Position numbers and translations under genes: made by a program. Of a DNA stretch of 40,903 nt, positions 1 through 38,213 are shown piece after piece. Each line of letters opens with the position of its first letter. Position 1 is the first letter of the stretch. Below the pieces are notes generated by a model. The model had not been told where the DNA came from. It searched no databases and saw only the letters and a program-made list of their open reading frames with translations. The stretch is from assembly GCA_035569515.1 (NCBI GenBank), contig DATMMY010000274.1, forward strand, positions 1 through 40,903, read 5' to 3'. The stretch is from Candidatus Solibacter sp. (GTDB taxonomy: Bacteria; Acidobacteriota; Terriglobia; Terriglobales; Acidobacteriaceae).

Positions 1-699
1 ACTGAAGCAGTGCCATCTCATGAGATTAACTAACCCTGTGTTGGTCATTACAACTGCCTTGGGAGTACCCGTCGAGCCAGAGGTGTAGATCATATAAGCA
101 GGATTGGACGGACGCAATGGCCGTACCCGCTCCGCGTTCACCGGATTACTCGCCACCATCGCTGCTAGCTTGCTCTCTGTCTCCAGGTCGTCCAGCACTA
201 ACAGCCGGGGCAGGCTGTCAGGCAATTGGGCAATTAGCGAAGAGACCGTAACCAGGCATGCCGGCTCGGCATCCCCGATCATGAACGCCAGCCGCTCCGC
301 CGGGTAGTCCGGGTCCAAGGGCAGATACGCCGCTCCCGCCTTCAGTATCCCCAGCAAGCTTACGATCATCTCTACCGATCGCGGCAGCGCCATCGCTACG
401 ATGCTCTCCGGCCCGATTCCTTCTCTAATGAGCAAGTGCGCCAGTTGATTGGCCCGCCGGTTCAGCTCCTCGTACGTGTACTCCTCCTGCTCGTAGACCA
501 GCGCTAACACCTTCGGCGTCCGCGCCACCTGCGCCTCCACCAGTTCCGGCAGCGTGGCTTCCCGCACTGCCCGCCCGGTGTCGTTCCACCCCTCCAGCAC
601 CTGCCGCCGTTCTTCCGCCGACAGGATGTTGGAGGACGGTGAAGCAAGAACACCTACGCCTGCGGCAGATGTATCCCGAGAATTCATGTTATTGGCCAT
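1..699 (-). CDS. NRPS, 5' portion only (continues past the window start); begins directly with an adenylation domain, with no condensation domain in front
   Basis: Absent from the ORF track because it has no stop inside the window. My reverse-complement translation from ATG at 699 (in-frame ATG also at 687) is stop-free to position 1. It reads SAEERRQVLEGWNDT, YTYEELNRRANQLAHLL, LKAGAAYLPLDPDYPAERL and AYMIYTSGSTGTPKAV (adenylation cores A1-A3). Confidence 0.85.
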   Translation of the reverse strand, partial: MANNMNSRDTSAAGVGVLASPSSNILSAEERRQVLEGWNDTGRAVREATLPELVEAQVARTPKVLALVYEQEEYTYEELNRRANQLAHLLIREGIGPESIVAMALPRSVEMIVSLLGILKAGAAYLPLDPDYPAERLAFMIGDAEPACLVTVSSLIAQLPDSLPRLLVLDDLETESKLAAMVASNPVNAERVRPLRPSNPAYMIYTSGSTGTPKAVVMTNTGLVNLMRWHCFS

Positions 700-750
700 A
701 AGGAACTTCGCAGTTCGCGCACTGCTTCCAATTCATCGTCACTGGAGCTT

Positions 751-1575
751 TCATTTGGCAGCCGCCGGCTTGAGGCGGGCAAGACCGGCGAGCCGCCCCA
801 GTTCCTCAACCACACTCTTCATAAAGAGCTCCTGGCAGCTGAACGGGAAGAAGTGGTCTCCATCGAAAATTCGCAGTGTGAAAGATGCGGTTGTCTGATC
901 GCGCCACGCGGCGGATTCCACGACGCTCGCCTCAGGATCGCGCAAGGCGCCCCATACGGTGAGGGGACAGTCCAGGCAGGCCTCGTCCACATATTCATGC
1001 GTCTCGCAGATTTCGAAATCCGCTCGAATGGTCGGCATCATCAGCCGCATCAGATCCAATTCATCGGCCAGCATGTCGCGATTGCCGTTGAGAGCTAATA
1101 TTTTCAGAAGAAATTCGTCGTCGGGCAGGTCATAACGAGGCGGCCGCTCGCGTGTCAGGTGTGGCGCGTACCTGCCGGAGAGCAGCAATGCGCCCGGCAA
1201 TGGAGAGCCACGCCGGCGAAGCTCTCTCGCAAGTTCAAAACTGATCAGCGCCCCCATGCTGTGGCCGTAAAACGCGAAGGGCTTCTCCAGGTAGGGTAAT
1301 ATGACATCCGCGATACGCGGCACGAGAGAGGACAACTTTGTGAAGGGTTGTTCGCTGATGCGGGCTTCGCGCCCCGGCATCTGGATCGGCCACACTTCTA
1401 CCTCTCCAGGCAGGCGCTTCGGCCAAGTTGCAAACATCGACGCGCCCGTTCCTGCGAACGGGAAGCAAAACAAACGAAGGGTACCGTCGTGCTTGGGCCT
1501 ATTACGTCCAAGCCAGAAGTCTGGGGATGGTAGAGCGTCTCCGCTCCCGCTACCCTGCTCAATGCCCGCCAACAT
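751..1575 (-). CDS. Type II (editing) thioesterase, alpha/beta hydrolase
   Basis: Motifs FCFPFAGTGAS and the GHSMGA nucleophile elbow; about 270 aa. The ORF-track start at 1809 would overlap the MFS gene by about 200 nt, whereas the internal ATG at 1575 (MLAGIEQG) leaves a 37-nt spacer, so I prefer 1575. Confidence 0.85.
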   Translation of the reverse strand: MLAGIEQGSGSGDALPSPDFWLGRNRPKHDGTLRLFCFPFAGTGASMFATWPKRLPGEVEVWPIQMPGREARISEQPFTKLSSLVPRIADVILPYLEKPFAFYGHSMGALISFELARELRRRGSPLPGALLLSGRYAPHLTRERPPRYDLPDDEFLLKILALNGNRDMLADELDLMRLMMPTIRADFEICETHEYVDEACLDCPLTVWGALRDPEASVVESAAWRDQTTASFTLRIFDGDHFFPFSCQELFMKSVVEELGRLAGLARLKPAAAK

Positions 1576-1612
1576 GCAGATTACTCCAGGGAAATCTTTC
1601 GCTGTACGAGGC

Positions 1613-3058
1613 TCACGCCACAGGGCTGCTGGGCACAGCCTGCGCGCAACTTCGATCGCCCGTAGCGCTGGCTGGTTTGCTTTCCGATTCATCCAACGCC
1701 AGCAACTGGGGAGAATGTTGTGCACAGACGAAAGCCAGGCAGGCCACAATACCGGTAAGGACCAACAATAATGCCGCGCCCCTGTTGCTGCCGACACCGA
1801 TGACTGCACCTAAAGTCCCGCTCAGTGGCCCACCAGAAACCAGCAACGGACGAAAAATCCTATCGGTGAGAGCACCGGCCACCAGAGGCGCCAGTGGAAC
1901 GGTGGAACGCCCGATGGTCAGCCGTATGGCGAAGATGCGGCCCTGCACCTCAGCAAGCGTTCTGGTCTGCCAGATGATCTGCATGCAACCGCTCATGATA
2001 GGGACGCAAAACCAGGCAATCGCCGTCGCACTTGCGATCAACAGCACCGACGGCCGCAGGCCCATGCATATAACTGCGAGTCCAAACACCAGCCCGAGTC
2101 GCAGCATCGTCCGAATTTGTTTCTGTTTCACGCCCCACGCAACCAGCAGCAGACTTCCCAGTACAGCGCCTGCCGCTCCAAGCGCCTGCACCACTCCAAG
2201 AATAGAAGGGCTGGATAGACCGAGTACGACCGGCACAATAAGCACCTGCCCAACGGTGATTACGAAATTCGCGAATGCGCCAAATAACAGAAGAATCAGC
2301 AGCCCTGGCCTAGCAGCAAGATAAGACCAGCCAAAAGTGATATCGCTCCACCATGATCTGCCCGCTAATCGACTCGAAGCAGCCGTTACAGCGGGAACCC
2401 GCACCGCGATGAGCGTAATGACGGCTACTAGAAAAGTTGCAAAGTCTATCAGAATGATTTGACCGACTTTGAACCGTGCAATGAGGACCGCTCCCAGCAG
2501 CGGTGTGACAATCTGAACACTGGCCGCGAAAAACTGGGAAACGCCATTGACACGCCCGAGATTCTGCTTAGAAACCAACAATGGGGTCACAGCCGCATAA
2601 GCCGGCGACTGAACAGCGGCAAATGACGAAACCAATGCCATCGAAAGATACACTTCCCACATCGCCAAACGACCGAAGAGCAGCGGCAAGGCGAGGCCCA
2701 GCGTGCAGAAACCGGCGCCAAGATTGCTTATTATGAGTACCCATCGGCGATCATAGCGGTCCACAATCGCTCCCGCGACCGGCAGGATCACAATCCCTGG
2801 AAGCGACGAGGACAGAATGACGGCGCCCATTCGCGTCACCGATCCCGTGTCCTGAAAAATCCTGATGCCCAGGGCAAAGGCGGTCAGCCCCGAACCGATG
2901 AGCGAAATGGCCTGGCCAAACAACAGCACGCCCATGATTCGCCCCCCATAGGGCGCCAGTTGCTGCCGGTTTGCGTCATCACCTGCCGACGCAGGCGTGG
3001 CGGAAACGATATACCGCAGCGAAGACCACCAGCTTACAATTGCTCCTATCACACTCAT
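1613..3058 (-). CDS. MFS transporter (putative exporter of the cluster product)
   Basis: 481 aa, almost entirely hydrophobic with about 12 predicted helices. ATG at 3058. Located between the TE-terminated NRPS and the type II thioesterase. Confidence 0.8.
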   Translation of the reverse strand: MSVIGAIVSWWSSLRYIVSATPASAGDDANRQQLAPYGGRIMGVLLFGQAISLIGSGLTAFALGIRIFQDTGSVTRMGAVILSSSLPGIVILPVAGAIVDRYDRRWVLIISNLGAGFCTLGLALPLLFGRLAMWEVYLSMALVSSFAAVQSPAYAAVTPLLVSKQNLGRVNGVSQFFAASVQIVTPLLGAVLIARFKVGQIILIDFATFLVAVITLIAVRVPAVTAASSRLAGRSWWSDITFGWSYLAARPGLLILLLFGAFANFVITVGQVLIVPVVLGLSSPSILGVVQALGAAGAVLGSLLLVAWGVKQKQIRTMLRLGLVFGLAVICMGLRPSVLLIASATAIAWFCVPIMSGCMQIIWQTRTLAEVQGRIFAIRLTIGRSTVPLAPLVAGALTDRIFRPLLVSGGPLSGTLGAVIGVGSNRGAALLLVLTGIVACLAFVCAQHSPQLLALDESESKPASATGDRSCAQAVPSSPVA

Positions 3059-3254: not shown

Positions 3255-6200
3255 CTAGACCTGAGGCACAGGGCTGGCTGCATCCATACAAGTGACGAGT
3301 TCTTGGGCCAAGCGTTCAACGTGGGGCATCTGAAGCAAAGTGGCGTGGTGACCGGAGATAAAATGCGTATCCAAAGGCTTGGTCGACAGCTTGTCCCATC
3401 CGCGCTTTGGATCCAGTACATCGACCCCGGCCTCGATCAGGGCCTTTGCGCTCTCTTGCTCCACTTCCGTTGAGCGAAAAAGCGTAATGGTGCCATCATA
3501 CTGAGTGGGCGAGTAGTCTCGAATCGCCTGGCTCCGCGCCTTGATGCCGTTCAGGAAACGCCGTACCCACCCGATATCCTGGTTCGCCTTCAGGAGATTG
3601 GCGGATTTCACCTGAGCCAGGATGTACTCAAGGCCCTTTTCCGGCGACAGACTTCTGATCAGTTCGTGCGGCAGCGCGAGTTCGACTTTTTCCATGCGCG
3701 CCCAATCACGAACGATGCCCGCGAAGGTGACGGCATCCCCCCGCTCACCAATCTGGTGGAGTGCAAACGGGGAAATACCATCGACTAGCACCAACAATCC
3801 CACCTGGCGGCCCTGGGCCCTGAGCTGCTGCGCCATTTCGAAAGCGATTACGCATCCGAAAGAGTACCCACCCAGATGGTAGGGCCCATGCGGCTGCACT
3901 GAGACCATTAATTCGACGTAAGTACTCGCCATCGACCTGATTGACTGTGCCTCGTCACCCACCTCCGAAGGATGCGCCGTACGAAAAGCATAAAACGGCT
4001 GGTCTGCCGGCATACTGCGCGCAAGGTTGGAGTAGATAGCCACCTCGCCCGAGAGAGAATGGACACAGAAGAACGGAGGTCTGGTTCCGTCCGGCTTCAG
4101 GGCCACCAGCGGCGAGTCGGACCAGTGAACATCCCCTTCGCGCAACAGGGCCGCGATTTGTTCTACCGTCGGTTTTTCAAAAAATGTCGATAGCTTGATC
4201 GTTTTGTCGAACTCCCGCCGGATGTGAGCCGTCAGCCGCTCGGCTAGGAGCGAATGGCCGCCAATTTCGAAGAAGTTATCTTTAATGCTGATCGGCCTCA
4301 CGTCGAGTACCGCTTCCCAGAGTTCAACCAGCTTCTCTTCGATAGGGTCGCGTGCCGATATTGTCTTCTGCTCACCCTTACCCTGTTCGAGGACGACAGC
4401 AGGCAGGGCTCGACGGTCCACCTTGCCGTTCGGCGTGAGAGGCAGCGCCGGTAGAACAACGAATCCGGCCGGCACCATGTATTCAGGAAGTTGCTTCTTG
4501 AGGAATTCCCGGATTTCACCGGTTCCGGCCGGATGGCCGACGTGAGTGACAAGATATGCGATCAGCCGTTTGTCGTCCGCCTGCGCCTTTTGCTCTACGA
4601 CAACAGCTTCCCGGACCGCGGGATGCCGCAAAAGCGCGGCTTCGATTTCGCCCAGTTCGATCCGGAATCCACGCAGCTTGACCTGATAGTCGAGGCGTCC
4701 GCGGAACTCGATGTGGTCGCGCCGTTCGGCGAGATAATGGCACGCATCGCCGGTCCGGTAGAGACGGCTGTTCGGTTCCCGGCTGAAGGGGTCGGGCACG
4801 AACCGTTCCGCAGTAAGATCAGGACGGTTGAGATAGCCGCGCGCAACCCCAAATCCGCCTATATACAGCTCACCCTCGACACCAATGGGCGCTGGCCCAA
4901 GATTCTGGTCGAGAACGTACATCTGCATGTTAGAGATTGGCACGCCGATTGGCACCGGTCCGGAGCGTGTTGTGCCGTCCGAGATGGTATATATCGCACA
5001 GCCGACCACAGTCTCGGTCGGTCCGTATTCATTAATGATGTTCGTTCCGTCAACCTGTGCGCGCCACAGCGAGAGCGCCTCCGCCGAAAGCGCATCCGCT
5101 CCAACCACCAGGGTGCCTGTCCGGCCTTGCAGCGCCTCCGGTGGCAACTGGCGATTGAGTAGTTCGAGGTGCGCCGGGGTAATTTTGATCAGACTGAATC
5201 CCTTTTCCTCCAGCAGCTTCTCCTTGAGCCGTTCAACACCCGGAGCTTCAGAGAGCAGTTCCACAGACTTGCCGACGACCAGCGGGGGGAATAGCCCCGT
5301 CAATGTCATGTCAAAACCAATGGGAGAATGGACCAGCGCTCCCCGGCCATTCGCGGCGCGGTAGGCATCGGCGGCCCAGCGTACATAGTTGGTGATGCCG
5401 AGATGGGTGATCATCACACCCTTCGGACGGCCGGTTGATCCCGATGTATAGATGACATACGCGAGATTCAGGGGATGCAAGGGGACCGAATGGTTCTCGG
5501 CAGGCAGCGGCGCGATCAGCGAATCCCACGAGGATTCCAGCGTAATCTCAGTAATACCGGAAATCGCCAGCGTACCGGCCAGGCGCTTTTCGGTCAGTAC
5601 GATCTTCACCCCGGCGTCGGCGGCCATAAACTGCAATCGCTCGAGTGGATACGTTGGATCCAGGGGCACATAGGCGCCACCCGACTTGAGCACACCTAAG
5701 AGCGCCACCATCATCTCCGGCGACCGATGCATAAAAACGCCTACGAGAGATTCCAGTCCGATCCCGGACGACCGTAAAAAGTTCGCCAGTTGGTTGGCGC
5801 GCTCATTCAATTCCCGGTATGTCATGCGCCGGTTGTCCTGCTTCAGGGCCGTCGCATCCGGAGTTCGCTCCATCTGCGCTTCAAACATCCGGTGGAAATA
5901 AGCGACCGGGACCTCTTCCTGCGTGGCGTTGGCTTCGGTCACACACCAGTGAAGTTCATCGCCGGTCAGGAGAGGCAACTGCGAAATTGGCTGATCGGGA
6001 TTGGCAACGATCCCACTGAGCAGGACTTGGAAATGCCCCATCATCCGGTCAATCGTCGTCGCATCAAACAGATCCGCGTTGTATAAAACAAATCCATTTA
6101 AGCCATCTTCTGTCTCTGACATCGAGATGGACAAATCGTACTTGGCAATGTTGTTCCGCTCTGCGAGTTCCGGCCATTCGACTTCGAGACCCTGAAAACC

Positions 6201-7409
6201 AACTCCTTTTCCCCGCCGATGGTGCAGTTCGAATGTCACTTGAAATAGGGGCGTATGGGCCGCTGTCCGGGCCGGTTGCAACGCTTCCACCAGTTTTTCG
6301 AATGGCAGATCCTGGTGGTCATAAGCATTCAGTGTTGACTCGCGTACTCGCCGCAGTACCTCCCTGAAGTCTGGGTCGCCGGCCAGATTTGTCCTGATCG
6401 CCAGAAGGTTCAGGAAACATCCGATCAGGTCTTCAATGTCGACCCGATACCTGCCAGCTACCGACGTGCCGACGGCAAAATCATACTGATTCGCATAGCG
6501 ACTGAGCAAGATCTTGAACGCACTCATCATCGTCATGAAGAGGCTCGCCCCGTCCTGTTCGCTCAGCGATTTCAGTCCATCCGCAACCGGTTTCGGGACC
6601 GCAATGAGGGCCCGCCCGCCGCGGAATGTCTGAACCGCGGGACGGGGGTGGTCAAATGGCAGGGCCAGCAGCGGGAGCCTATCCAGATGCTCCTTCCAAT
6701 ACGAGATTCTGCTCTCAAGCACCTTGCCGCGAAGCCGCTCTTTTTGCCAGGCGGCAAAATCGCCGTACTGGATTGTCAATTCCGGCAGTTGCGAATCGCC
6801 GCCAGAGAGGTAACCCGAATAAAGAACGCTCAATTCCCCGAATAAAATGCCCAGCGACCACCCATCTGAAACGATGTGATGCATGGCAAGAAGCAGGATG
6901 TGCTCATCATCCGCCACTCTTATCAGTTGTACCCGAAAAAGACAGTCGCGCCCGAGGTTGAATGGCCGGCGAGCGTCCTCTGCCGCCAAACGCCGCACAG
7001 AAGCATCTCGTTCGGCGGCCGGACGATCACGCAGGTCGATAAAGTTAAGATTCAGCGGTTCAAACGGGTCAACGCATTGAACCGGCTGGTCCTGGATGAT
7101 CATAATCCTGGTCCTCAGGACCTCATGTCGCTGGACGATTTCGTTCAGGCTTCGCTCGAAAGCCCCGCGATCCAACTGGCCCCGCAGACGCAAACTGCCG
7201 GCAATGATGTCCGCGGAGTCCGCCGAACGAAGCTGGTATGCGAGCCACAGCCCCTGCTGCGGAAACGAGAGTGGAAACGGCGAGCGCCGGTCCGCTCGCC
7301 GCGAGATGCGGCCTGCAGTGCTGTCGCCGTCCCGCTGTTTGAGTCTCAACTCTAGCAGGGCTCTCTGCTCTGGCGTCAGTTGCGTAATGTCAAGAGAAGT
7401 AAATGTCAT
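3255..7409 (-). CDS. NRPS3, termination module C-A-T-TE
   Basis: C domain: PLSFPQQGLWL and canonical MHHIVSDGWS. A domain: AYVIYTSGSTGRPKG, FDMTLTG, NEYGPTE, YRTGD, PNGKVDR. T domain: FFEIGGHSLL. TE domain: GGYSFGC. The ORF track extends to 7478; ATG at 7409 (MTFTSLDITQL) has a GAGG a few nt upstream and is the likelier start. Confidence 0.95.
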   Translation of the reverse strand: MTFTSLDITQLTPEQRALLELRLKQRDGDSTAGRISRRADRRSPFPLSFPQQGLWLAYQLRSADSADIIAGSLRLRGQLDRGAFERSLNEIVQRHEVLRTRIMIIQDQPVQCVDPFEPLNLNFIDLRDRPAAERDASVRRLAAEDARRPFNLGRDCLFRVQLIRVADDEHILLLAMHHIVSDGWSLGILFGELSVLYSGYLSGGDSQLPELTIQYGDFAAWQKERLRGKVLESRISYWKEHLDRLPLLALPFDHPRPAVQTFRGGRALIAVPKPVADGLKSLSEQDGASLFMTMMSAFKILLSRYANQYDFAVGTSVAGRYRVDIEDLIGCFLNLLAIRTNLAGDPDFREVLRRVRESTLNAYDHQDLPFEKLVEALQPARTAAHTPLFQVTFELHHRRGKGVGFQGLEVEWPELAERNNIAKYDLSISMSETEDGLNGFVLYNADLFDATTIDRMMGHFQVLLSGIVANPDQPISQLPLLTGDELHWCVTEANATQEEVPVAYFHRMFEAQMERTPDATALKQDNRRMTYRELNERANQLANFLRSSGIGLESLVGVFMHRSPEMMVALLGVLKSGGAYVPLDPTYPLERLQFMAADAGVKIVLTEKRLAGTLAISGITEITLESSWDSLIAPLPAENHSVPLHPLNLAYVIYTSGSTGRPKGVMITHLGITNYVRWAADAYRAANGRGALVHSPIGFDMTLTGLFPPLVVGKSVELLSEAPGVERLKEKLLEEKGFSLIKITPAHLELLNRQLPPEALQGRTGTLVVGADALSAEALSLWRAQVDGTNIINEYGPTETVVGCAIYTISDGTTRSGPVPIGVPISNMQMYVLDQNLGPAPIGVEGELYIGGFGVARGYLNRPDLTAERFVPDPFSREPNSRLYRTGDACHYLAERRDHIEFRGRLDYQVKLRGFRIELGEIEAALLRHPAVREAVVVEQKAQADDKRLIAYLVTHVGHPAGTGEIREFLKKQLPEYMVPAGFVVLPALPLTPNGKVDRRALPAVVLEQGKGEQKTISARDPIEEKLVELWEAVLDVRPISIKDNFFEIGGHSLLAERLTAHIRREFDKTIKLSTFFEKPTVEQIAALLREGDVHWSDSPLVALKPDGTRPPFFCVHSLSGEVAIYSNLARSMPADQPFYAFRTAHPSEVGDEAQSIRSMASTYVELMVSVQPHGPYHLGGYSFGCVIAFEMAQQLRAQGRQVGLLVLVDGISPFALHQIGERGDAVTFAGIVRDWARMEKVELALPHELIRSLSPEKGLEYILAQVKSANLLKANQDIGWVRRFLNGIKARSQAIRDYSPTQYDGTITLFRSTEVEQESAKALIEAGVDVLDPKRGWDKLSTKPLDTHFISGHHATLLQMPHVERLAQELVTCMDAASPVPQV

Positions 7410-22134: not shown

Positions 22135-22191
22135 GTCAGTCCTTATACCGCGTGTCTTTAATATTTGCGAAATGCGTGACCGCAATCCGCC

Positions 22192-23392: not shown

Positions 23393-23857
23393 TTAGGCGG
23401 AGTCGCCTGCCACTTCGAAGCCATCCGTCCCTTGCCGGATCCGATTTTTGGGGAGAACCCGAATCTGGGTGGGTGTAACACCATACTGGACCTTAAAGTC
23501 GCGGACGAAGTGACTGCTGTCGCAATACCCAACTTTGACCGCGACTTCTTTGATGGATAACAGCGTTCCGCCAATCAGATCTCGCGCGCTTTGCAGGCGC
23601 ACAAGTTTCAAGTATTTCTTGGGCGGCATGCCAATGTTCTTCCGGAACAGATGACGCAGATGTGAACGCGACATTCTCAAATGTTTGGCGACATCTTTCA
23701 GTGAGTCGTTGCGGTGTTTCCACTGTTCCAGGAGCGTCTTCGCCATCGCCACACGATAATCCATTCTGAGTTCACCGGCTCCCGCGCTTGCGATGCGCCC
23801 CAATACATCCTCAGTCATACCGTGATCTCTTCCGCTTTCTAACTTCAATCCTGGCAA
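23393..23857 (-). CDS. AraC/XylS-family transcriptional regulator; DNA-binding domain only
   Basis: Tandem HTH signature: DVAKHLRMSRSHLRHLFRKNIGMPPKKYLKLVRLQSARDLI and IKEVAVKVGYCDSSHFVRDFKVQYGVTPTQ. The ORF-track start is TTG at 23857; ATG at 23818 is an alternative. Confidence 0.8.
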   Translation of the reverse strand: MPGLKLESGRDHGMTEDVLGRIASAGAGELRMDYRVAMAKTLLEQWKHRNDSLKDVAKHLRMSRSHLRHLFRKNIGMPPKKYLKLVRLQSARDLIGGTLLSIKEVAVKVGYCDSSHFVRDFKVQYGVTPTQIRVLPKNRIRQGTDGFEVAGDSA

Positions 23858-23919: not shown

Positions 23920-25029
23920 TCATACGGCTGCGGAAACGGTTGACTTGATTACGTCGGAATATTCGCGTCTTCCCCACTGCATTCGCGACCAGACAGGTCC
24001 CGCCTTCAAGGGATGATCAACCTCCCTGGGACACTCGGGCAGTTCCGGAAGCCAAAGATTCTCTTTCCAGAGATACTCATCACTGTAGATCGTATCCGTA
24101 TAGCGATAGCCGTCATCAGGCAGGATGCATACTACCTTTGCCTTGGGGTTTTTCTTTGCCCAATGCCGCGCCACTAGCCATGCTGCGCCGCTGGTTCCTC
24201 CGCAGAATAAGGTACTTTGCTGGTGCAGCATCCGAGTAGCTTTATAAGCTTCTGCCGCCGTGACCCAATGCACTTCGTCAAAGAGCCGGTGATCCAGGTT
24301 TTTTGGCAGAACACTGTTTCCCAGCCCCCGCAGCGTTCTGATCTGGTCAGGCTGCCCGAAAAGAACACTGCCAAAAGTGTCCACGCCGACCGTTGTCATC
24401 TCCGGGAAGAGTTCGCGCAGAAAGCCGGAAGTACCGCAGACCGAGCCACCTGATCCGACCGTCCCCACCAGGCAGTCGATCTGGCCCAGGGCTTCCACCA
24501 GTTGGGCCGCGAGAAAACTAAAAGCCCCCGGGTTGCCTGGATTGTCGTATTGATTCACCCAGAAATGTTCAGGAGATGTCTCCCTGATTTCTTCCAGCCT
24601 ATTGAGGCGGGCCCGCTGATATCCGCCATTTACCGAGGGCGCAGACACAATCTCAACCCGCGCGCCTAGGTCCTCAAGCCGGCGGCGCAGGAACCCGTCA
24701 CAGGCATAGTCGCTCACAATTGTTAGGCGATATCCCGACAAATTACAGACCAACGCCAAGCCCAGCGCCAGGTTGCCGGAAGAGGTTTCGACGATTAACG
24801 TTTGAGAACGTATCCGCCCTTCCTCCCGTGCTTTCCGCAAGCAGAACTCAGCGGGAAAGATTTTCATGAACGGAAATACAGCGGCCGTTAGGTTGTCTTC
24901 CAGGGGTACCAGCTTGGGCCTGTAAGAATCGATAATCGCTTTATAAGTCTCTTGAATCACTACTGATAACCCTTGTGGCAAGGATTTTTTAACTCTGGAA
25001 ACGCAGCATCTGCGTGATTCCCAGACCAT
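23920..25029 (-). CDS. Fold-type-II PLP-dependent enzyme (cysteine synthase / cystathionine beta-synthase / SbnA-like beta-replacement family)
   Basis: Candidate PLP lysine in FPFMKIFPAE. ETSSGNLALGLA resembles the TSGNTG loop and GTVGSGGSVCG resembles the GTGGT phosphate loop. ATG at 25029 overlaps the upstream kinase gene by 41 nt; in-frame TTG and GTG codons slightly downstream are alternative starts. Confidence 0.75.
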   Translation of the reverse strand: MVWESRRCCVSRVKKSLPQGLSVVIQETYKAIIDSYRPKLVPLEDNLTAAVFPFMKIFPAEFCLRKAREEGRIRSQTLIVETSSGNLALGLALVCNLSGYRLTIVSDYACDGFLRRRLEDLGARVEIVSAPSVNGGYQRARLNRLEEIRETSPEHFWVNQYDNPGNPGAFSFLAAQLVEALGQIDCLVGTVGSGGSVCGTSGFLRELFPEMTTVGVDTFGSVLFGQPDQIRTLRGLGNSVLPKNLDHRLFDEVHWVTAAEAYKATRMLHQQSTLFCGGTSGAAWLVARHWAKKNPKAKVVCILPDDGYRYTDTIYSDEYLWKENLWLPELPECPREVDHPLKAGPVWSRMQWGRREYSDVIKSTVSAAV

Positions 25030-25912
25030 CGAAATCGGCCTGTATTCGGTCTACCTTTTTTTCCAGGAATTCATCCGCCGGGTCAAGGAGGACACTCAGG
25101 ACAGTGCCCGAATGGGCCACTCCTACGCCCAAGGCTCCCGCCAGATCGGCGATCCGGCGAATTTCCGCGAACTTCGGCTTTGGCAGAAAATGCTCATTGA
25201 TACAGGCGCTGGCCGTCGCCACCCGCCCCAAAAGCCGGATGTCATTTTTACGGATGGCCCGACGCATCGCGCCTGCCAAAGTGCAGAATGACTGGCGTTG
25301 TCTCCATGAATAATCAGAAGGCGGATGCTGCAATGTCTCGACACGGCCTTCCGGAGCGGTATCGATGCCCAATATTTCAATCTTGGGCAAAAGTTTTGCG
25401 TAGTCCTCCAGGACCACTCCCTCGCGATGGGCAAACAAAACTGCGCGGCGGAACATAAAGTTATCACTTGCAACTTCCGCGCCCACAACCAATTTCGCCA
25501 ACTCTTCCTCCGACAACGATCGGTTGATTGAATCCGCAACGGCAACCGCCGCCACTATGCAATCCGCCGTAGAACTGCCGCAACCTTTTGCTTCCGGCAC
25601 CGTGGACTCAATGGACAGGTGTCCTCCCAATTCCGGGGCGTCCAGGTAGGCAAGTGTCATTTCCACGGCCTTCAATGACTTTTTTTTGTATGGAGGATCA
25701 ACGCTGAGAACGCCGTCAGCACCAGGACAGAATTTTGCCTCGGAAGACATTGCTCTGCATGGCAAGCTCATCAGGCATCGGCGCTGCCTGCCCTTTTCAT
25801 CTTCGACCTGACCCTGAAACAGTTCGCCATACTGGGCTATGCTCCGCCCTCGGCCTATTTTGGGCCGCACTCCGTACCTGTATTCTTCAGGCCATCCTTT
25901 CAATCTTGTCAT
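24989..25912 (-). CDS. GHMP-family kinase (PduX / L-threonine-kinase-like)
   Basis: N-terminal YGELFQG as in PduX-type kinases. GHMP motif II-like PEAKGCGSSTADCIVAAVAV. 307 aa. ATG at 25912. Confidence 0.7.
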   Translation of the reverse strand: MTRLKGWPEEYRYGVRPKIGRGRSIAQYGELFQGQVEDEKGRQRRCLMSLPCRAMSSEAKFCPGADGVLSVDPPYKKKSLKAVEMTLAYLDAPELGGHLSIESTVPEAKGCGSSTADCIVAAVAVADSINRSLSEEELAKLVVGAEVASDNFMFRRAVLFAHREGVVLEDYAKLLPKIEILGIDTAPEGRVETLQHPPSDYSWRQRQSFCTLAGAMRRAIRKNDIRLLGRVATASACINEHFLPKPKFAEIRRIADLAGALGVGVAHSGTVLSVLLDPADEFLEKKVDRIQADFDGLGITQMLRFQS

Positions 25913-26039: not shown

Positions 26040-27038
26040 TTAATAAGACCAGCGCAATAAAGTCGCCCCTGCCGTCATTCCTGCGCCGACAGCGGCAAGC
26101 AAGACGATGTCTCCCCTATTGAGCCGTTGTTCATTCATGGCCGACTGGAGCGCCAAAGGAATCGTGGCGGCCCCCGTGTTCCCGTACTTGTCGATATTCA
26201 CAATCACATGACTGGAACAGAGGTTCAGTCGCTCGGCTACAGCAGCCATGATGCGCCTGTTTCCTTGGTGTGGAACAAATAGTTTGATGTCGTTGATCGT
26301 CAGGTTATTCCTCGCAAGGAGCCGCTGGCACAATTCGGCAAGCTTGCACACGGAATACTTGAAGACTGAAACTCCATCCTGATGCACAAAATGCATTTTT
26401 TTCGAGACGGTTTCGTGCGAAGCGGGATGAAGACTGCCTCCGCCGGGTATTCGTAATGAACCGGCCAAGGAACCATCGCCTTCGTGTAAAAAATCGATCA
26501 AAACGCAATCATCCCGCTCATCGGCCGGCTCGATCAGCACCGCGCCGGCGCCGTCTCCAAATAAAATACACGTGGAAGGATCGGAGTAATCGGTGATAGA
26601 CGACATTACATCGACACCAATGACCAGGGCCCGTTGGAGAGCGCCGGTCCTTATGAATTGCACAGCAGCTTGCATGCCGAAAAGGAACCCTGAACAGGCG
26701 GCCGAAATATCGAACCCCCACGCGCGCCGGCACTCTAGCTTATGCTGCACCAGGCAGGCTGTGGCGGGAAAAATCATGTCCGGCGTAGCGGTTGCGACAA
26801 TAACGACGTCGACTTCCGCGGGAGAGATTCCAAGATCCTCAATCACTCTGCGGCCGGCCAGGGCCGCTAGTTCCGAACTGGGAGTGCCCGGCCGGCAGAT
26901 GCGGCGCTCTCGAATGCCGGTCCTGCGCACGATCCATTCGTCGCTTACATTGACGGTTCTTTCGAAATAGTCATTGGCCCGAATCTCAGGGGGAGCATAC
27001 ACTCCCAACCCGCTTATCTTGGCCTGGAGCAATCTCAC
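26040..27038 (-). CDS. 3-oxoacyl-ACP synthase III (FabH-like KAS III)
   Basis: Active-site Cys in DISAACSGF, His in VPHQGN, Asn in YGNTGAAT. 332 aa. GTG start at 27038. Confidence 0.9.
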   Translation of the reverse strand: MRLLQAKISGLGVYAPPEIRANDYFERTVNVSDEWIVRRTGIRERRICRPGTPSSELAALAGRRVIEDLGISPAEVDVVIVATATPDMIFPATACLVQHKLECRRAWGFDISAACSGFLFGMQAAVQFIRTGALQRALVIGVDVMSSITDYSDPSTCILFGDGAGAVLIEPADERDDCVLIDFLHEGDGSLAGSLRIPGGGSLHPASHETVSKKMHFVHQDGVSVFKYSVCKLAELCQRLLARNNLTINDIKLFVPHQGNRRIMAAVAERLNLCSSHVIVNIDKYGNTGAATIPLALQSAMNEQRLNRGDIVLLAAVGAGMTAGATLLRWSY

Positions 27039-27166: not shown

Positions 27167-28039
27167 TCAGGCGCTGCGGGCATCGATCCGGCGCATGCTG
27201 ATTCGGGCCAGATTCATTGTCCCTGTATGAAAAGCCACAATCATGAGGGCGAGATACTTCTCGTACTGGCTGACTTTATCTGTCCCGGCAATTGCAATCG
27301 CCTCTTTTCTGCAGGCGCGCAAATTGTCGAGCCAATGCCGGAGAGTGCGGGCGTAGTGAGCCCGATCGTTTCGCCACATCTCAATTTCGAACAGTCCGGA
27401 AACGGCCTGCGCAATCTCAAACATGTGCGGCAAATCCGATTCCGGAAAAATAGTCTCGGCGAAAAACGGGCTAAACTGTTTGCGGCTGGCATTCTCATAG
27501 ATGATCGTCTGCAAAGACAGGCGTCCGCCCGGTCGCAAGCATTGATGGCAAAACGAAAAAAAATCGCGATAGCCCTCCAGTTTTTTTTCTGGGGACTGGT
27601 CCAGCCGGGCAAAATGCTCAAATGCGCCAATCGACACGATGCCGTCATAGGGACTCTCCGCCTGATGATCGAGCCAGTTTTCCAGACGCACATCCGCATT
27701 GCGCACACTATGCTCCTGGCACCATCGGACCTGCTCCATGCTTAAGGACAAGCCGACCGCCTCGCGAACTTGATAATGCTCCAGTGCCCGTTTTAAGGTG
27801 CTTCCCCATCCACACCCAACCTCCAGCAATCGCCGGACTTCGCGCCCTCCGACGTTATTCAAATGCCAGTCGATCTTGTTCATCTGGGCCGTGACCAGAT
27901 CTTCGTCTCCATACCACAAACCGCAGGAATATGTGCGTGTTTCATCCAGCCAGAGGGCGTAGAACTCATTGCCGACATCGTAATGGTGCTGTATGGCGGC
28001 AGCCGATGCTCCCGTCCGGTTTTCTGTGGAAGCCTTCAT
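27167..28039 (-). CDS. Cyclopropane-fatty-acyl / mycolic-acid-synthase-family SAM-dependent methyltransferase
   Basis: HHYDVGNEFYALWLDETRTYSCGLW is the characteristic N-terminus of the CFA synthase family. SAM motif LLEVGCGWG. The start overlaps the ACP stop in an ATGA overlap at 28036-28039. Confidence 0.85.
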   Translation of the reverse strand: MKASTENRTGASAAAIQHHYDVGNEFYALWLDETRTYSCGLWYGDEDLVTAQMNKIDWHLNNVGGREVRRLLEVGCGWGSTLKRALEHYQVREAVGLSLSMEQVRWCQEHSVRNADVRLENWLDHQAESPYDGIVSIGAFEHFARLDQSPEKKLEGYRDFFSFCHQCLRPGGRLSLQTIIYENASRKQFSPFFAETIFPESDLPHMFEIAQAVSGLFEIEMWRNDRAHYARTLRHWLDNLRACRKEAIAIAGTDKVSQYEKYLALMIVAFHTGTMNLARISMRRIDARSA

Positions 28040-28350
28040 GGCGCAGTCCCCAGAGCGCGGGAATGCAAGACCGCGGCAAACAACTTTTCGTCCATGGCAA
28101 GGGCACGAGACAGCTTCTCGATCGAAGGGTGGTCAAACGTCGCCCCCGGATCGACCTTATGGCCCAACCAGTCGCCTAAGTTCCCGGTCATTCCAACCAC
28201 TACGGAAGAATCGAGCCCATACCTCTCAAAAGAGGTTGTGAGATCAATCTCCTCTTCGGGACGCTCCAGGATCTGGGCCAGATATGCCTTGCACCAATTC
28301 GCAATTTGAGCTTGCAATAATTCAGGCGTCAATATCGTTTGTTGAGTCAT
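28036..28350 (-). CDS. Stand-alone acyl carrier protein
   Basis: 104 aa with the phosphopantetheinylation motif YGLDSSVVVGM. Translationally coupled to the methyltransferase gene. Confidence 0.8.
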   Translation of the reverse strand: MTQQTILTPELLQAQIANWCKAYLAQILERPEEEIDLTTSFERYGLDSSVVVGMTGNLGDWLGHKVDPGATFDHPSIEKLSRALAMDEKLFAAVLHSRALGTAP

Positions 28351-28491: not shown

Positions 28492-29424
28492 TCACGCCCG
28501 GTTCTTCAAGTACGCCCTGCGTACGTTCCAAACTAAACCGATGCGTTCGAGAAGTTGAATCACAATGCCCCCTCCATCGAGTTCCCACCAGCGCAAACCG
28601 AAAATTGCGGAAGTAGGATGGGCGTGATGATTGTTGTGCCAGCCCTCGCCCAGGGTCGGATAGCCCAGCCAGATGTTGTTGCGGCTTTGCTCAATCGTGG
28701 CGAACGACCGATAACCAAACATGTGGGTGATGGAATTAATGGATGCTGCCGCATGGTGCGTAAAGAAGAGCCGGACTCCGCCGCCCCACAGCAGTCCACG
28801 CCATAGCCCGTGCCAGCTGGGATCGATCACCCCTCCGATGACGGTCGGGATCAAAAGCCCGAGCAGAACCCAGTGGAAATAACGCTGGTTGACCCACGTT
28901 ATCTGGGAATCTTTGAGCAGATCTTTGCAGAAGAAGGCGGAGTTTGTGAGCTGGTGCGTGAAAGTCCAGCCAAAATGGGCGTGCCAGAAACCGCGCCAAC
29001 CTTCGAGCTCGCGATCATCGAGCCTGTGCGGAGAGTGCGGATCGCCGTTACCGTCGCCGAAACGATGATGGCGTCTATGATTACTCACCCAGTAAATGAG
29101 AGGCCCCTGCGCAGCCATGCACCCCAGGACCGCGAGACTGAACCGGACCATACTATGGCATTGAAAGGTCTGATGAGAAAATAGACGGTGGAACCCTACT
29201 GTGATGCCAAGCATCGTCAATAGATAGAGCACCACCATCAATACCGGCTCCCATATCCTGACCTCTCCCTTCCACAGGTAATAACCCGCCAGGAGCACCG
29301 CCAGAGTGGGCACCACGATAATTGACGCAGCATGCGCCTTCTGCGCAAGGCTTACTTTATACCCTTGCAGCACATAATTGCTGCTTGCCGCTTTAGCGGC
29401 CATACTTGGAGACAAAGGTTCCAT
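28492..29424 (-). CDS. Membrane fatty-acid desaturase (Delta9 acyl-CoA/acyl-lipid desaturase family)
   Basis: Three His boxes: HRLFSH, HRRHHRF and HNNHHAH. Hydrophobic N-terminal helices. The start lies 3 nt after the FAAL stop. Confidence 0.9.
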   Translation of the reverse strand: MEPLSPSMAAKAASSNYVLQGYKVSLAQKAHAASIIVVPTLAVLLAGYYLWKGEVRIWEPVLMVVLYLLTMLGITVGFHRLFSHQTFQCHSMVRFSLAVLGCMAAQGPLIYWVSNHRRHHRFGDGNGDPHSPHRLDDRELEGWRGFWHAHFGWTFTHQLTNSAFFCKDLLKDSQITWVNQRYFHWVLLGLLIPTVIGGVIDPSWHGLWRGLLWGGGVRLFFTHHAAASINSITHMFGYRSFATIEQSRNNIWLGYPTLGEGWHNNHHAHPTSAIFGLRWWELDGGGIVIQLLERIGLVWNVRRAYLKNRA

Positions 29425-29427
29425 TGG

Positions 29428-31149
29428 TCAGCCTCCTGCTGCTGCAATGGCCTTGGATTCGCTGGTTTGCAGAACCTCAAATTCCCCGGCCCGTAACATT
29501 TGCGCGCACAGGCTGCGACGCACCTTTCCACTAGACGTACGCGGCAGAGCTCCAGTCTTAATGAGCGCTACTTCATGGACGTGCAAACCATGTTCGGTGG
29601 CAATGGCTTCACGGACTCCGGCAGCTAGCTCGTCCGCATCCGCTGACCGCCAACCTTCACGGGTTACTTCCTGGACAAGGGCGATACAAACCTGCCCGTC
29701 CTTCTCAATCGCTACGACTGCTCCCGCGCCGATTGAAAGGAATGGACTCGTGCGCTGCGCCGTCAATTCCAGGTCCTGCGGATAGTGATTGCGTCCCCGG
29801 ATAATAATCACGTCTTTGATCCGCCCGGCGATGAACACCTGCCCTTCGTGCCAAAAGCCCAGGTCCCCGCTGCGCAGGAACCGCTTTCCCGAAGTACCCG
29901 CGGGCGCCGCCCCGAACGTCTCTTCTGTCAATTCCGGCTTTTTGTAATAACCTGCCGCGACACTTGCGCCGCTGATCCAGATTTCTCCAACGACATCATC
30001 CGGCAGGATCTTTCGAGTTTCCGGATCAACGATGACAATCTCGATTCCCTCCCCCGGAACGCCGCATCCCACCAGTTCGATCACCGGCTCGTCTCCGGTA
30101 GGTGTCCGCGCTATTTTCTGAGAAAGCGCCTCTGACTCCACTCGAAGGATTTTCGCTCCGCTGCCTGCGACAATTCCGGTGGCGAAGAGCGTGCATTCAG
30201 CCAGTCCATAACAGGGATAAAACGCGCTGGCCTTGAATCCGGCAGGAGCAAAGACCTTTGTGAAACGGCGAATCATATCGGCGCGCACCGGCTCTGCGCC
30301 TGAATAGGCGACGGTCCAGGTGCTCAGATCAAGTTGATCAATTTCTTCCGGCTTGCTTCTGGCGATGCATAAGTCATAGGCAAAACTGGGAGCGCCTGCG
30401 GACGTGCCTCGGTATTTGCTGATCGCCTGGAGCCAGCGAACGGGCTTTTGAATGAACGTCGCTGGTGGAATTATCACGCAATGAAATCCCGTATGCAGGG
30501 GTTGCAGCACGCTACCGATCAACCCCATATCGTGGTAAAACGGCAGCCAGCTCACCATCACGGACCTGTCATGAAAACCCATGGCTTTCATGATCACGGT
30601 TTCGTTATGCATCAACTGGCTATGTTTTACGACAACTCCCTTGGGAATGCCCGTGGATCCCGAAGTATATTGAAGGAAAGCAATATCATCAGGCTTGATT
30701 GCGGCTCGTCTTGGCTCTTCTACGCTGTAGTCTATTTCATCCAGGTAGAGCCAGGGAACATCACGCAGATTTTCTGGAAGCGCAGCCTTCAAATAACCGA
30801 ATGCACGGGAGGGCACGATGGCTGCGGCCACTCCGGCATCGGCGCTGATTGCGCGGATCGTATCGAATGACCGATTCGGTTTTGGGACTATCGCCGCAAC
30901 TGGAATGGCTCCTGCGTAACAACTGCCGATAAACGCATCAATAAACTTCAGCAGCTCCGGGACCAGAAGCAGAACGGGCCTGCCGGAAACGCCGAACAAA
31001 GCAAGTCGATGCGCAACAGCGCGCGCATGGCGGTCAAGTTCTCCAAAAGAACGTTTTTCGCCTTCAACTTCGCCATCCGGCAGATACGTAAACGCCGTCT
31101 CATGAAAGCGGGACTCCGCATGCTTCTCAAGGGTGTCTACAATGGTCAC
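29428..31149 (-). CDS. Fatty acyl-AMP ligase (FAAL)
   Basis: FAAL-type N-terminus TAFTYLPDGEVEGEKRSFGELDRHARAVAHRL, LQYTSGSTGIPKGV, and C-terminal LPRTSSGKVRR. GTG start at 31149. First gene of the minus-strand block. Confidence 0.85.
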   Translation of the reverse strand: MTIVDTLEKHAESRFHETAFTYLPDGEVEGEKRSFGELDRHARAVAHRLALFGVSGRPVLLLVPELLKFIDAFIGSCYAGAIPVAAIVPKPNRSFDTIRAISADAGVAAAIVPSRAFGYLKAALPENLRDVPWLYLDEIDYSVEEPRRAAIKPDDIAFLQYTSGSTGIPKGVVVKHSQLMHNETVIMKAMGFHDRSVMVSWLPFYHDMGLIGSVLQPLHTGFHCVIIPPATFIQKPVRWLQAISKYRGTSAGAPSFAYDLCIARSKPEEIDQLDLSTWTVAYSGAEPVRADMIRRFTKVFAPAGFKASAFYPCYGLAECTLFATGIVAGSGAKILRVESEALSQKIARTPTGDEPVIELVGCGVPGEGIEIVIVDPETRKILPDDVVGEIWISGASVAAGYYKKPELTEETFGAAPAGTSGKRFLRSGDLGFWHEGQVFIAGRIKDVIIIRGRNHYPQDLELTAQRTSPFLSIGAGAVVAIEKDGQVCIALVQEVTREGWRSADADELAAGVREAIATEHGLHVHEVALIKTGALPRTSSGKVRRSLCAQMLRAGEFEVLQTSESKAIAAAGG

Positions 31150-38212: not shown

Positions 38213-38213
38213 A

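Follow-up and report, generated by a model that had tools for sequence, protein, structure and literature searches.

Domains that adopt the condensation fold and have lost their catalytic residues serve to recruit tailoring enzymes to nonribosomal peptide synthetases (NRPSs), as is the case for the X domain of glycopeptide NRPSs, which brings in P450s, and, in siderophore NRPSs, of the interface (I) domain, which recruits TauD-type β-hydroxylases. The latter we take to be a condensation-like domain that lacks the catalytic His pair and is located N-terminal to the adenylation (A) domain of the hydroxylated residue. The C-methylation of unactivated carbons by radical S-adenosylmethionine (rSAM) enzymes is well studied in ribosomal peptides, with few demonstrated cases in non-ribosomal peptides, while the Arg1 enzyme of argyrin biosynthesis is reportedly a cobalamin (B12)-dependent rSAM C-methyltransferase of an NRPS product. 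In cystobactamid biosynthesis, a TauD-type enzyme hydroxylates carrier-bound Asn, which is subsequently methylated (PMC7966384), and the B12-rSAM enzyme CysS acts on an aminobenzoate linked to pantetheine, whose methoxy group it methylates iteratively to ethoxy, isopropoxy and further (PMC12846815). The B12-rSAM enzyme DscE C-methylates an NRPS peptide in vitro (PMC12858407), and the dabABC gene layout gives rise to 2,3-diaminobutyrate or, alternatively, diaminopropionate (PMC10906522). Here, we describe an NRPS cluster on a 40,903-nucleotide contig of Candidatus Solibacter sp. (DATMMY010000274.1), the whole of which is referred to below as the window, and in particular a protein encoded therein which combines a B12-type rSAM domain, a pseudo-condensation domain (C*) and a TauD-family oxygenase domain. 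The best overall explanation of the cluster is that it directs the synthesis of a short acidic Asp-Glu-Asn peptide which is tailored on its carrier by this fusion protein, docked through C*, a reading to which we assign a probability of about 0.55.

Domain architecture of the rSAM-C*-TauD fusion protein

The fusion protein is encoded between the genes for two synthetases, NRPS1 and NRPS2. Its parts, and a stand-alone homolog of its oxygenase domain, are:

14083..18003, minus strand: fusion protein of 1306 aa, gene between NRPS1 and NRPS2
16324..18003, minus strand: fusion residues 1-560, putative B12-binding domain and radical SAM domain, motif CPFQCSFC (Pfam Radical_SAM, E 3e-20)
15124..16323, minus strand: fusion residues 561-960, pseudo-condensation domain C*, motif HPAIADS (Pfam Condensation, E 2e-4, N-lobe only)
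14083..15009, minus strand: fusion residues 999-1286, TauD-family oxygenase domain, motif HHE...AHGR (Pfam TauD, E 3e-43; PDB At3g21360, E 5e-32)
22192..23244, minus strand: stand-alone TauD-family Fe(II)/2-oxoglutarate oxygenase of 350 aa, motif HHE...AHGR (Pfam TauD, E 1e-43)

The rSAM domain, which is strongly conserved across the family of relatives described below, harbors the CxxxCxxC cluster motif (CPFQCSFC), as does a second rSAM enzyme of 640 aa encoded in the cluster (CPFRCGFC). The nearest NCBIfam models of the fusion rSAM domain are the ribosomally synthesized peptide (RiPP) C-methyltransferase family TIGR03975 (E 8e-37) and the PhpK P-methyltransferase family (E 8e-31), both under their cut-offs. 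The Pfam B12-binding domain reaches 30.8 bits in the fusion and 29.0 bits in the 640-aa enzyme against a cut-off of 32.1 bits; of four family members with an rSAM domain that were scanned, two exceed it (P0070, 39.1 bits; P0010, 34.3 bits). A first-pass annotation, made from the letters of the window alone, had proposed C-methylation or rearrangement by the two B12-rSAM enzymes; the nearest families are C- and P-methyltransferases, and rearrangement finds no specific support. A recent duplication of the two rSAM enzymes was considered and rejected, as they are only ~25% alike over their core and belong to different subfamilies.

The C* domain was modelled with AlphaFold2 from ten family sequences (pLDDT 76.5; pTM 0.78). 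A Foldseek comparison of this model placed the epimerisation (E), condensation (C) and X domains of NRPSs on top, over the full length, with a probability of 1.0 and E-values down to 1e-18; as modelled, C* adopts the full C/E/X condensation fold. The motif HPAIADS is found in place of the condensation motif HHxxxDG, the family consensus being HRAxADS. Of the 16 family members aligned, 15 lack the catalytic second His, which is replaced by a Pro here and by an Arg in most relatives.

The fusion's TauD domain and the stand-alone TauD protein share 40% identity; for the latter, only three PDB chains were returned, At3g21360 and 9yut being the nearest. Affiliation with isonitrile lipopeptide clusters, which combine a fatty acyl-AMP ligase (FAAL), an acyl carrier protein (ACP), the TauD-family enzyme ScoE and an NRPS, was also considered and rejected: no PDB match of the stand-alone protein (TauD1) was tied to ScoE. 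Pfam scans of the window proteins gave no match to a hotdog-type (ScoD-like) thioesterase.

Distribution of the rSAM-C* family and organization of its loci

A search of 5.8 billion proteins yielded 283 relatives. The full rSAM-C*-TauD architecture is shared by eight of these (54-68% identity), while the others are rSAM-C* proteins of ~960 or 1200 residues. All named members derive from metagenome-assembled genomes (MAGs) of Blastocatellia/Pyrinomonadaceae, other Acidobacteriota and Chloroflexota, with none from a cultured strain. When C* alone was compared against 1.84 billion representative proteins, only 39 matches were obtained at an E-value of 1e-10 or better, most of them placed as they would be in an rSAM-C* protein, with a few in giant NRPSs; among weaker matches, the N-lobes of common NRPS C domains prevailed. 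In 185,579 species genomes, 22 loci were identified, every one in a MAG. Within the literature covered, which is incomplete, we found no description of an rSAM/condensation-domain fusion, nor of such a system with radical SAM in Acidobacteria or Angelobacter. The fusion family, of more than 270 members, is apparently undescribed, and is best regarded as uncharacterised rather than unique.

The organization of these loci was derived from the 22 MAG loci and three metagenome loci with triple-fusion homologs, onto which the window domains were mapped by tblastn and in which reading frames were checked. In the loci with checked frames the rSAM-C* gene forms a separate open reading frame (ORF), with its neighbor often 3 nt away, and NRPS genes are located nearby at every locus where flanking sequence exists. 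The gene on the 5′ side usually ends in a full C domain, behind modules of varied kinds, while the gene on the 3′ side usually opens with the C-terminal lobe of a C domain only (residues ~200-455 of a normal C domain), followed by an A domain. This half-C head is of the same kind as that at the start of NRPS1 in the window. NRPS proteins headed by a half-C domain follow rSAM-C* in loci L087, L088, L091, L095, L099 and L100, and the 1200-residue rSAM-C* members carry an extra C-lobe at their own C-terminus. One possibility is that the half-domains on both partners form a split or complementing domain.

The module following rSAM-C* carries an Asn-type code in seven of the 11 readable loci (DLTK[IV]GEVGK, with one DLTHVGEVGK and one partial code) and the Gln code DAWQFGLIDK in two, while a FAAL-initiated NRPS follows in the remaining two. 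At the four triple-fusion loci (the window, L003, L004 and L005), the next module consists of an interface-like domain and a Glu-specific A domain. TauD adjoins an interface-like C domain of the NRPS2 type followed by an A domain in L087, L093 and L099 as well, and three arrangements of TauD and rSAM-C* can be distinguished, with TauD fused behind rSAM-C* (window), at the end of the upstream NRPS (L099) or encoded by a separate upstream gene (L106). These recurrent but shuffled gene associations constitute the main evidence that the parts act together on Asx/Glx residues.

The closest counterpart of the cluster is found on an independent 98-kb soil contig (L003), where the core of TauD, NRPS, fusion, NRPS, methyltransferase, NRPS with thioesterase (TE), kinase and pyridoxal phosphate (PLP) enzyme genes is present at 43-79% identity. 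The kinase and PLP genes are placed after the TE in this locus, a homolog of the methyltransferase is kept and the CysS-like gene is absent. In L004 and L005, the triple fusion occurs in a hybrid polyketide synthase (PKS)-NRPS context with KS-AT domains, an aminotransferase-containing protein and free-standing C domains, along with another B12-rSAM gene and a fragment of a penicillin amidase. The triple fusion is thus not bound to the tripeptide cluster type.

The NRPS assembly line

Four NRPS genes are found in the window, the last of them incomplete:

18076..22185, minus strand: NRPS1, comprising a C-like C-terminal lobe, an A domain (Asp), a thiolation (T) domain (GGDSI) and a C domain (NHLLMDGW) (Pfam, Stachelhaus code)
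10883..14065, minus strand: NRPS2, comprising an interface-like C domain (PGTFADY), an A domain (Glu) and a T domain (Pfam, Stachelhaus code)
3255..7409, minus strand: NRPS3, 1384 aa, comprising a C domain (MHHIVSDGW, LCL type), an A domain (Asn-like), a T domain and a TE (Pfam, Stachelhaus code)
1..699, minus strand: start of NRPS4, first 230 residues, opening with an A domain (Pfam AMP-binding, profile positions 2-193 of 384)

The earlier count of A-T modules, three of them complete, is borne out by Pfam, as is a fourth A domain at the left end of the window, which runs off the contig ahead of its specificity residues. Core motifs of modular NRPSs are present, among them the serines of the T domains, the HHIVSDG of NRPS3 and the GYSFG of its TE. 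Specificity codes for the three complete A domains, for which a prediction of specificity had been recommended, were obtained by alignment to GrsA, whose own code DAWTIAAICK was recovered as a check on the numbering; two gap artefacts were corrected by eye. The codes are DLTKIGHVGK for NRPS1, DAKDLGVVDK for NRPS2 and DMTKVGEVGK for NRPS3. The first two we take to be an Asp code and the classical Glu code, respectively, and the third agrees at nine of ten positions with DATKVGEVGK, presumably the Asn code.

The C domain of NRPS3 is canonical, with the motif MHHIVSDGW and the LCL-type start FPLSFPQQGLW. The terminal C domain of NRPS1 (18076-19500) contains a DCL-type C1 motif, YPLTAVQEGILFH, and its NHLLMDGW motif keeps the catalytic second His, while the T domain ahead of it (about 19550-19750) reads GGDSI, a variant normally located ahead of epimerising domains. 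Residue 1 may be D-configured, or the NRPS1 C domain may be of a dual E/C type, although no separate E domain is encoded. The first-pass statement that epimerisation domains are absent is therefore correct for separate E domains only. The head C domain of NRPS2 reaches no more than 124 bits with Pfam Condensation; at the HHxxxDG position it reads PGTFADY, with both His lost. For the N-terminal ~300 aa of NRPS1, alignment to this NRPS2 domain is confined to residues 225-413 of the latter (E 1e-6), and the NRPS1 reading frame leaves no room for an upstream extension. Taken together, the states of the C domains in NRPS1, NRPS2 and NRPS3 leave two plausible catalytic C domains for three residues and no starter C domain. 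The NRPS2 head and the half-C head of NRPS1 probably represent docking surfaces rather than catalysts.

Additional tailoring enzymes and the kinase/PLP pair

Further tailoring and precursor-supply functions are predicted for four proteins:

7485..9407, minus strand: CysS/KedN5-family cobalamin-dependent rSAM methylase, 640 aa, CPFRCGFC (PDB 9n1b, CysS)
9515..10816, minus strand: class I SAM methyltransferase, 433 aa, with a ~240-aa C-terminal extension (Pfam Methyltransf_12/23/31)
24989..25912, minus strand: GHMP-family kinase, DabA-like, probable Thr/Ser O-kinase, 307 aa (Pfam GHMP_kinases_N and _C)
23920..24960, minus strand: SbnA/DabB-type PLP β-replacement enzyme, 346 aa (TIGR03945, 236 bits against a cut-off of 350; PDB 5d84)

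Two cobalamin enzymes, CysS and TokK, can be aligned with the 640-aa enzyme along its length; it shares 38% amino acid identity with CysS (PDB 9n1b) over residues 3-632 (E 3.5e-151; TokK, E 2e-58), and its best NCBIfam match is the KedN5 family, at 323 bits where the cut-off is 700. Homologs of the 433-aa methyltransferase are encoded directly 5′ of the rSAM-C* genes in L088 and L090 (45-46% identity), while that of L003 is 70% identical. The single SAM methylation proposed at first must be revised, as two class I SAM methyltransferases are present. B12-rSAM enzymes, the occurrence of two of which in one cluster had been singled out as notable, are indeed uncommon in NRPS pathways, but CysS (PMC12846815) and DscE (PMC12858407), and reportedly Arg1, provide experimentally studied precedents. 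The two enzymes of the window are not equivalent. It is the fusion family, and not the number of rSAM genes, that makes the cluster of interest.

The GHMP kinase shows weak similarity to homoserine kinases, and homologs sharing 66-67% identity with it occur in operons with genes for a PLP enzyme, an ATP-grasp protein and a protein resembling argininosuccinate lyase. The start of the PLP enzyme, and with it the length of 346 aa, was taken from a relative (P0272). In comparison with SbnA (PDB 5d84; E 6e-39), this enzyme keeps the PLP lysine Lys47, the phosphate-binding Arg132 and Tyr152, while Ser185 is replaced by Gly. It has more than 2000 relatives, several of which, at ~65-71% identity, are labelled Candidatus Angelobacter sp. 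(Terriglobia), which suggests that the window stems from an uncultured soil acidobacterium probably related to this genus. Three loci with homologs at 74-78% identity (66-78% for homologs of the pair overall) are organized as an operon of GHMP kinase, PLP enzyme, ATP-grasp and argininosuccinate lyase-like genes, in the dabABC layout. The lyase step could be encoded elsewhere in the genome, or the kinase/PLP intermediate could be used as such. In the related L113 locus (1-9980), a nicotianamine synthase-like gene and genes for a second PALP enzyme, a haem oxygenase-like protein, an M28 peptidase and a Rieske protein are situated beside the dabABC-like operon, and a 559-aa B12-rSAM enzyme is encoded directly 5′ of the GHMP kinase.

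The lipid cassette

A set of fatty-acid activation and modification genes is located at the 5′ end of the cluster:

29428..31149, minus strand: FAAL, 573 aa (Pfam AMP-binding, E 4e-62)
28492..29424, minus strand: membrane fatty-acid desaturase, 310 aa, His boxes HRLFSH, HRRHH and HNNHH (Pfam FA_desaturase, E 1.7e-18)
28036..28350, minus strand: stand-alone ACP, 104 aa, LDS motif (Pfam PP-binding, E 6.5e-13)
27167..28039, minus strand: CMAS-family SAM methyltransferase, of the cyclopropane/methyl-branch synthase type, 290 aa (Pfam CMAS, E 6e-64)
26040..27038, minus strand: β-ketoacyl-ACP synthase III (KAS III, FabH-type), 332 aa (PRK09352, 375 bits, cut-off 249; TIGR00747, 346 bits, cut-off 292)

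The best NCBIfam matches of the first of these are FAAL subfamilies (NF004509, 406 bits; NF006624, 384 bits), all under cut-off, as are those of the CMAS-type methyltransferase (mycolic_MTase, 176 bits; CFA synthase, 170 bits). The Cys-His-Asn triad of the KAS III is intact (AACSG, HQGN and GNTGAA). At the L018 locus (1-11949), genes for a FAAL, a desaturase and an ACP are followed by those for a single-module reducing PKS (KS-AT-DH-cMT-KR-ACP-TE) and a second desaturase, and this locus looks, from its gene content, like a pathway for a modified long-chain lipid. The FAAL-desaturase-ACP order is shared between L018 and the window, suggesting a portable unit for the activation and desaturation of acyl chains.

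Extent, gene order and boundaries of the cluster

The remaining complete genes of the cluster encode:

1613..3058, minus strand: major facilitator superfamily (MFS) transporter, 481 aa (Pfam MFS_1, E 9e-22)
751..1575, minus strand: type II thioesterase, 274 aa, GHSMG (Pfam Thioesterase, E 7e-41)
23393..23857, minus strand: AraC-family regulator, 154 aa (Pfam HTH_18, E 4e-24)

The ORF listing, translation and Pfam scans agree on 18 intact, co-directional minus-strand genes between positions 1 and 31149, as annotated in the first pass, which together form an NRPS cluster. Read along the minus strand, these are FAAL, desaturase, ACP, CMAS-type methyltransferase, KAS III, GHMP kinase, PALP enzyme, AraC and TauD, followed by NRPS1, the rSAM-C*-TauD fusion, NRPS2, the 433-aa methyltransferase, the 640-aa B12-rSAM enzyme and NRPS3-TE, and finally MFS, type II TE and the start of NRPS4. 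The junctions quoted earlier are correct, with gaps of 3 nt (FAAL/desaturase), 17 nt (fusion/NRPS2) and 6 nt (TauD/NRPS1) and an overlap of 4 nt (ATGA) between the ACP and CMAS genes, and the remaining intergenic gaps measure 28-196 nt. The description of an NRPS-centred cluster with two TauD proteins, two B12-type rSAM enzymes and an acyl activation and tailoring cassette likewise holds, the core set recurring in L003, while the summary of gene content had not named the GHMP kinase/PLP pair and the AraC regulator. A stretch 61% identical to the AraC gene lies 5′ of the TauD gene in L003. A 47-codon ORF (3101-3244, minus strand), shorter than a typical MbtH-like protein, is located between the NRPS3 and MFS genes and is called on both contigs that carry it.

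The right boundary of the cluster is sound, with a purine/urate catabolism operon beginning on the plus strand at 31695. This operon (31695-40830) comprises genes for the small and large subunits of xanthine dehydrogenase, 2-oxo-4-hydroxy-4-carboxy-5-ureidoimidazoline (OHCU) decarboxylase, uricase, 5-hydroxyisourate (HIU) hydrolase, an M20 amidohydrolase/peptidase and an allantoinase-like amidohydrolase. Between the OHCU decarboxylase and uricase genes lies an 826-bp gap (36164-36989) without a Pfam-recognisable ORF; the sole long ORF associated with it (36951-37427, minus strand) has no family match. In L113 and L114, from a related organism, the dabABC-like operon is also within a few kb of xanthine dehydrogenase genes, and this shared proximity may reflect a conserved genomic neighborhood for the cluster.

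Extension to the left, proposed earlier as a way to find the cluster boundary, recovered no sequence beyond the left end of the window. Exact look-ups with the MFS, type II TE, fusion, 433-aa methyltransferase and OHCU decarboxylase proteins returned one ENA contig of 41,010 bp and short fragments; this contig carries identical gene copies and ends about where the window ends, and near-identical proteins are also found on a JGI contig of 49,305 bp. One metagenome scan with the type II TE gave no match above 50% identity. No cobalamin riboswitch or other RNA family was detected in the whole window with Rfam, and promoter and terminator scans of positions 22000-32000 gave signals at or under the shuffle expectation, such that no operon boundaries were resolved. 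The sequence is present only in soil DNA runs and one metatranscriptome, where a single 261-nt contig is an exact match to positions 17142-17402, inside the rSAM part of the fusion gene; other matches in that run span 21-31 nt and are at chance level.

Proposed pathway and alternative interpretations

Judged from its gene content, the cluster may operate as follows. An Asp-Glu-Asn chain would be built by NRPS1, NRPS2 and NRPS3, with its two peptide bonds formed by the terminal C domain of NRPS1 and the initial C domain of NRPS3, and would be released by the TE of NRPS3. C* would anchor the fusion at the junction of NRPS1 and NRPS2, in the manner in which P450s are held by X domains and β-hydroxylases by interface domains. 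There, carrier-bound Asp and/or Glu would be C-methylated by the rSAM domain and β-hydroxylated by the TauD domain of the fusion, while a second hydroxyl group, on another residue, would be introduced by the stand-alone TauD protein. The 433-aa methyltransferase would methylate a heteroatom, and the CysS homolog may extend this methyl group iteratively to ethyl or isopropyl. The DabA/DabB-like pair would generate an O-phospho-amino acid and, by β-replacement, a building block of the diamino acid type that may feed NRPS4. The FAAL, desaturase, ACP, CMAS-type methyltransferase and KAS III would supply an unsaturated or cyclopropanated/branched acyl-ACP, from which the peptide may be acylated, although no route for this is apparent; a role for the KAS III as the acyltransferase joining acyl chain and peptide is possible but speculative. 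The hydroxylation and methylation of carrier-bound Asn in cystobactamid biosynthesis, the C-methylation by DscE and the recruitment of enzymes by X and interface domains provide precedents for each of the proposed tailoring steps. In this scheme, what the domains are, the state of their motifs, the A-domain codes, the fold of C* and the conserved gene order are observed, whereas all substrates, the sequence of steps, docking by C* and lipidation are inferred.

More broadly, we suggest, as a tentative proposal that we place somewhat short of even odds, that rSAM-C* proteins represent a new class of NRPS tailoring enzyme whose own dead C domain docks between subunits at half-C modules and which C-methylates carrier-bound Asn, Gln, Asp or Glu, with the TauD fusion in the window forming a two-reaction unit. 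If true, the principle of the X and interface domains would extend to a third class of enzymes, and a portable tool for the methylation of Asx/Glx residues would be at hand. An rSAM-C* gene combined with an upstream NRPS ending in a C domain and a downstream module with a half-C start would also provide a signature for genome mining, which could flag modified Asn or Gln in clusters of Acidobacteriota and Chloroflexota currently predicted to incorporate plain Asn or Gln. The lineages of the organism-labelled relatives are rich in such clusters, with few known products.

A number of observations weigh against the proposed pathway. Transcript evidence consists of the single 261-nt metatranscriptome contig. 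Non-fused rSAM-C* proteins precede Asn or Gln modules, whereas the half-C head in the window belongs to the Asp module, which makes the target residue ambiguous, and the terminal NRPS1 C domain departs from HHxxxDG in reading NHxxxDG. In the 640-aa enzyme, the CysS substrate contacts W188 and W271 correspond to Ser186 and Tyr269; its substrate is thus likely to differ from that of CysS, with iterative alkoxy extension being an analogy only. The nearest PDB entry to the 433-aa methyltransferase is a protein lysine N-methyltransferase (8hkr, E 2e-19) and not one of the O-methyltransferases. As for the DabA/DabB-like pair, Pfam scans found no DabC (ATP-grasp and argininosuccinate lyase-like) counterpart in the window, the PLP gene is followed by that of the AraC regulator, and a diamino acid is not suggested by any of the three A-domain codes that can be read. 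Regarding acylation, NRPS1 lacks a starter C domain and no lipidation catalyst is identified, the FAAL-desaturase-ACP genes recur in L018 (44-52% identity; desaturase 52%) in the service of a PKS, and no lipid cassette is found in the 23.9-kb stretch of L003 covered or in the ~4.7 kb upstream of its TauD. Of the lipopeptide-type FAAL/ACP initiation first proposed, the presence of the FAAL and ACP genes is confirmed, while initiation by this route is not supported, given the missing starter C domain, the absence of the cassette from the covered stretch of L003 and the use of the FAAL-desaturase-ACP trio with a PKS in L018.

The alternative that survives best, although we consider it unlikely, is that the 31 kb is a mosaic of separate units, namely a FAAL-KAS III cassette, a remnant dabAB pair, a tripeptide operon headed by AraC and a second NRPS at the left edge, and that the peptide is unlipidated. 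Besides the absence of a starter C domain and the company which the FAAL-desaturase-ACP genes keep in L018, it draws on the L003 core, which starts at the AraC-like stretch and TauD, has no FAAL cassette in the 23.9 kb covered and has the kinase/PLP pair after the TE, on the close homologs of this pair in non-NRPS neighborhoods that include DabC, and on the TE that ends NRPS3 and the A domain that opens NRPS4. However, the 18 genes all run in one direction, no gap exceeds 196 nt, several junctions measure 6 nt or less or overlap, and no terminator- or promoter-like signal stands out between the units. The kinase/PLP pair has been kept with the core in L003 despite rearrangement, and biosynthetic clusters are commonly built from such portable sub-clusters.

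It is improbable, in our estimation, that the product is an amphiphilic peptide siderophore of the cupriachelin or cyanochelin type, with β-hydroxy-Asp, and possibly β-hydroxy-Glu or -Asn, supplying α-hydroxy-carboxylate iron ligands, and a FAAL-derived lipid tail. One TauD gene adjoins the Asp module and the other the interface-like C domain, a placement which, as far as the citing texts describe it, is the arrangement of siderophore β-hydroxylases (Reitz 2019, cited in PMC12971057 and PMC12230676), and FAAL, ACP and an MFS exporter are encoded. Against this, the 40.9-kb window contains no TonB-dependent receptor, periplasmic binding protein, ABC importer or ferric reductase, only one module is specific for Asp, the module behind the interface-like domain takes Glu and not Asp or His, and B12-rSAM methylases such as the CysS homolog are not among the metallophore markers of PMC12971057.

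Similarly little credence is given to a non-methylating cobalamin radical reaction of the fusion rSAM domain (rearrangement, cyclisation or C-C cross-linking) or to C* as a working, non-canonical condensation or epimerisation catalyst, since, although all NCBIfam matches of the rSAM domain, including the non-methylating BchE and AprD4, are far under cut-off, its best PDB match, the unnamed rSAM protein 9ccb, reaches only E 1.5e-8, epimerisation domains are the top structural neighbors of C* and the first His and the Asp of its motif are kept in most of the 16 aligned members, the two closest named families are methyltransferases, the catalytic second His has been replaced and the Foldseek E-values barely separate the E, C and X domains from one another (1e-18 to 1e-15).

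Comparison with known systems

We retain the on-carrier tailoring of an acidic tripeptide by a C*-docked fusion as the preferred reading, and the systems closest to it differ from the window in distinct respects. The cystobactamid system (CysS, CysJ and CysQ) shares with the window the combination of a TauD-type hydroxylase, a SAM methyltransferase and a B12-rSAM methylase. Unlike cystobactamid, the window encodes no aminobenzoate chemistry, AMDH domain or CysB-type shuttle, and its methyltransferase resembles lysine N-methyltransferases. DscE is likewise a cobalamin-type rSAM methylase encoded in an NRPS cluster, that of discodermin, and acts on the finished peptide in vitro. To our knowledge, both DscE and Arg1 are stand-alone enzymes, for which no fused condensation-fold or TauD domain has been reported. 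With the dabABC and SbnA systems, the window has in common a GHMP kinase beside a PLP enzyme of the cysteine synthase fold that carries the SbnA phosphate-binding Arg, while it lacks a DabC-type lyase or SbnB-type dehydrogenase and has Gly in place of SbnA Ser185.

The tailoring repertoire of the window also resembles that of the acidic calcium-dependent lipopeptides CDA, A54145 and friulimicin, which includes 3-hydroxy-Asn, 3-methoxy-Asp, 3-methyl-Glu or methyl-Asp, along with a diamino acid and a dedicated fatty-acid cassette with FabH. In contrast to these, only three (or more) modules are encoded here, with no starter C domain and no Asp-X-Asp-Gly motif that could be inferred, and methylation would be performed by radical SAM enzymes rather than by GlmT or a glutamate mutase. 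No characterised cluster with the same gene set was found in the literature covered, which is incomplete; MIBiG was outside this comparison. Within the same limits, no description was found of a cobalamin radical SAM protein recruited by a condensation-fold domain.

The closest parallels to C* itself are the X and interface domains, which share its fold, X domains being among its structural matches. The NRPS2 head fits the layout of an interface domain as we have taken it to be defined, with the partner TauD domain of the fusion ending 17 nt before NRPS2, although this interface-like domain heads a Glu module. Where X and interface domains form part of the synthetase, C* is carried by the tailoring enzyme. 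What differs from these precedents is the position of the dead domain on the tailoring enzyme, and the nature of that enzyme as a cobalamin radical SAM protein.

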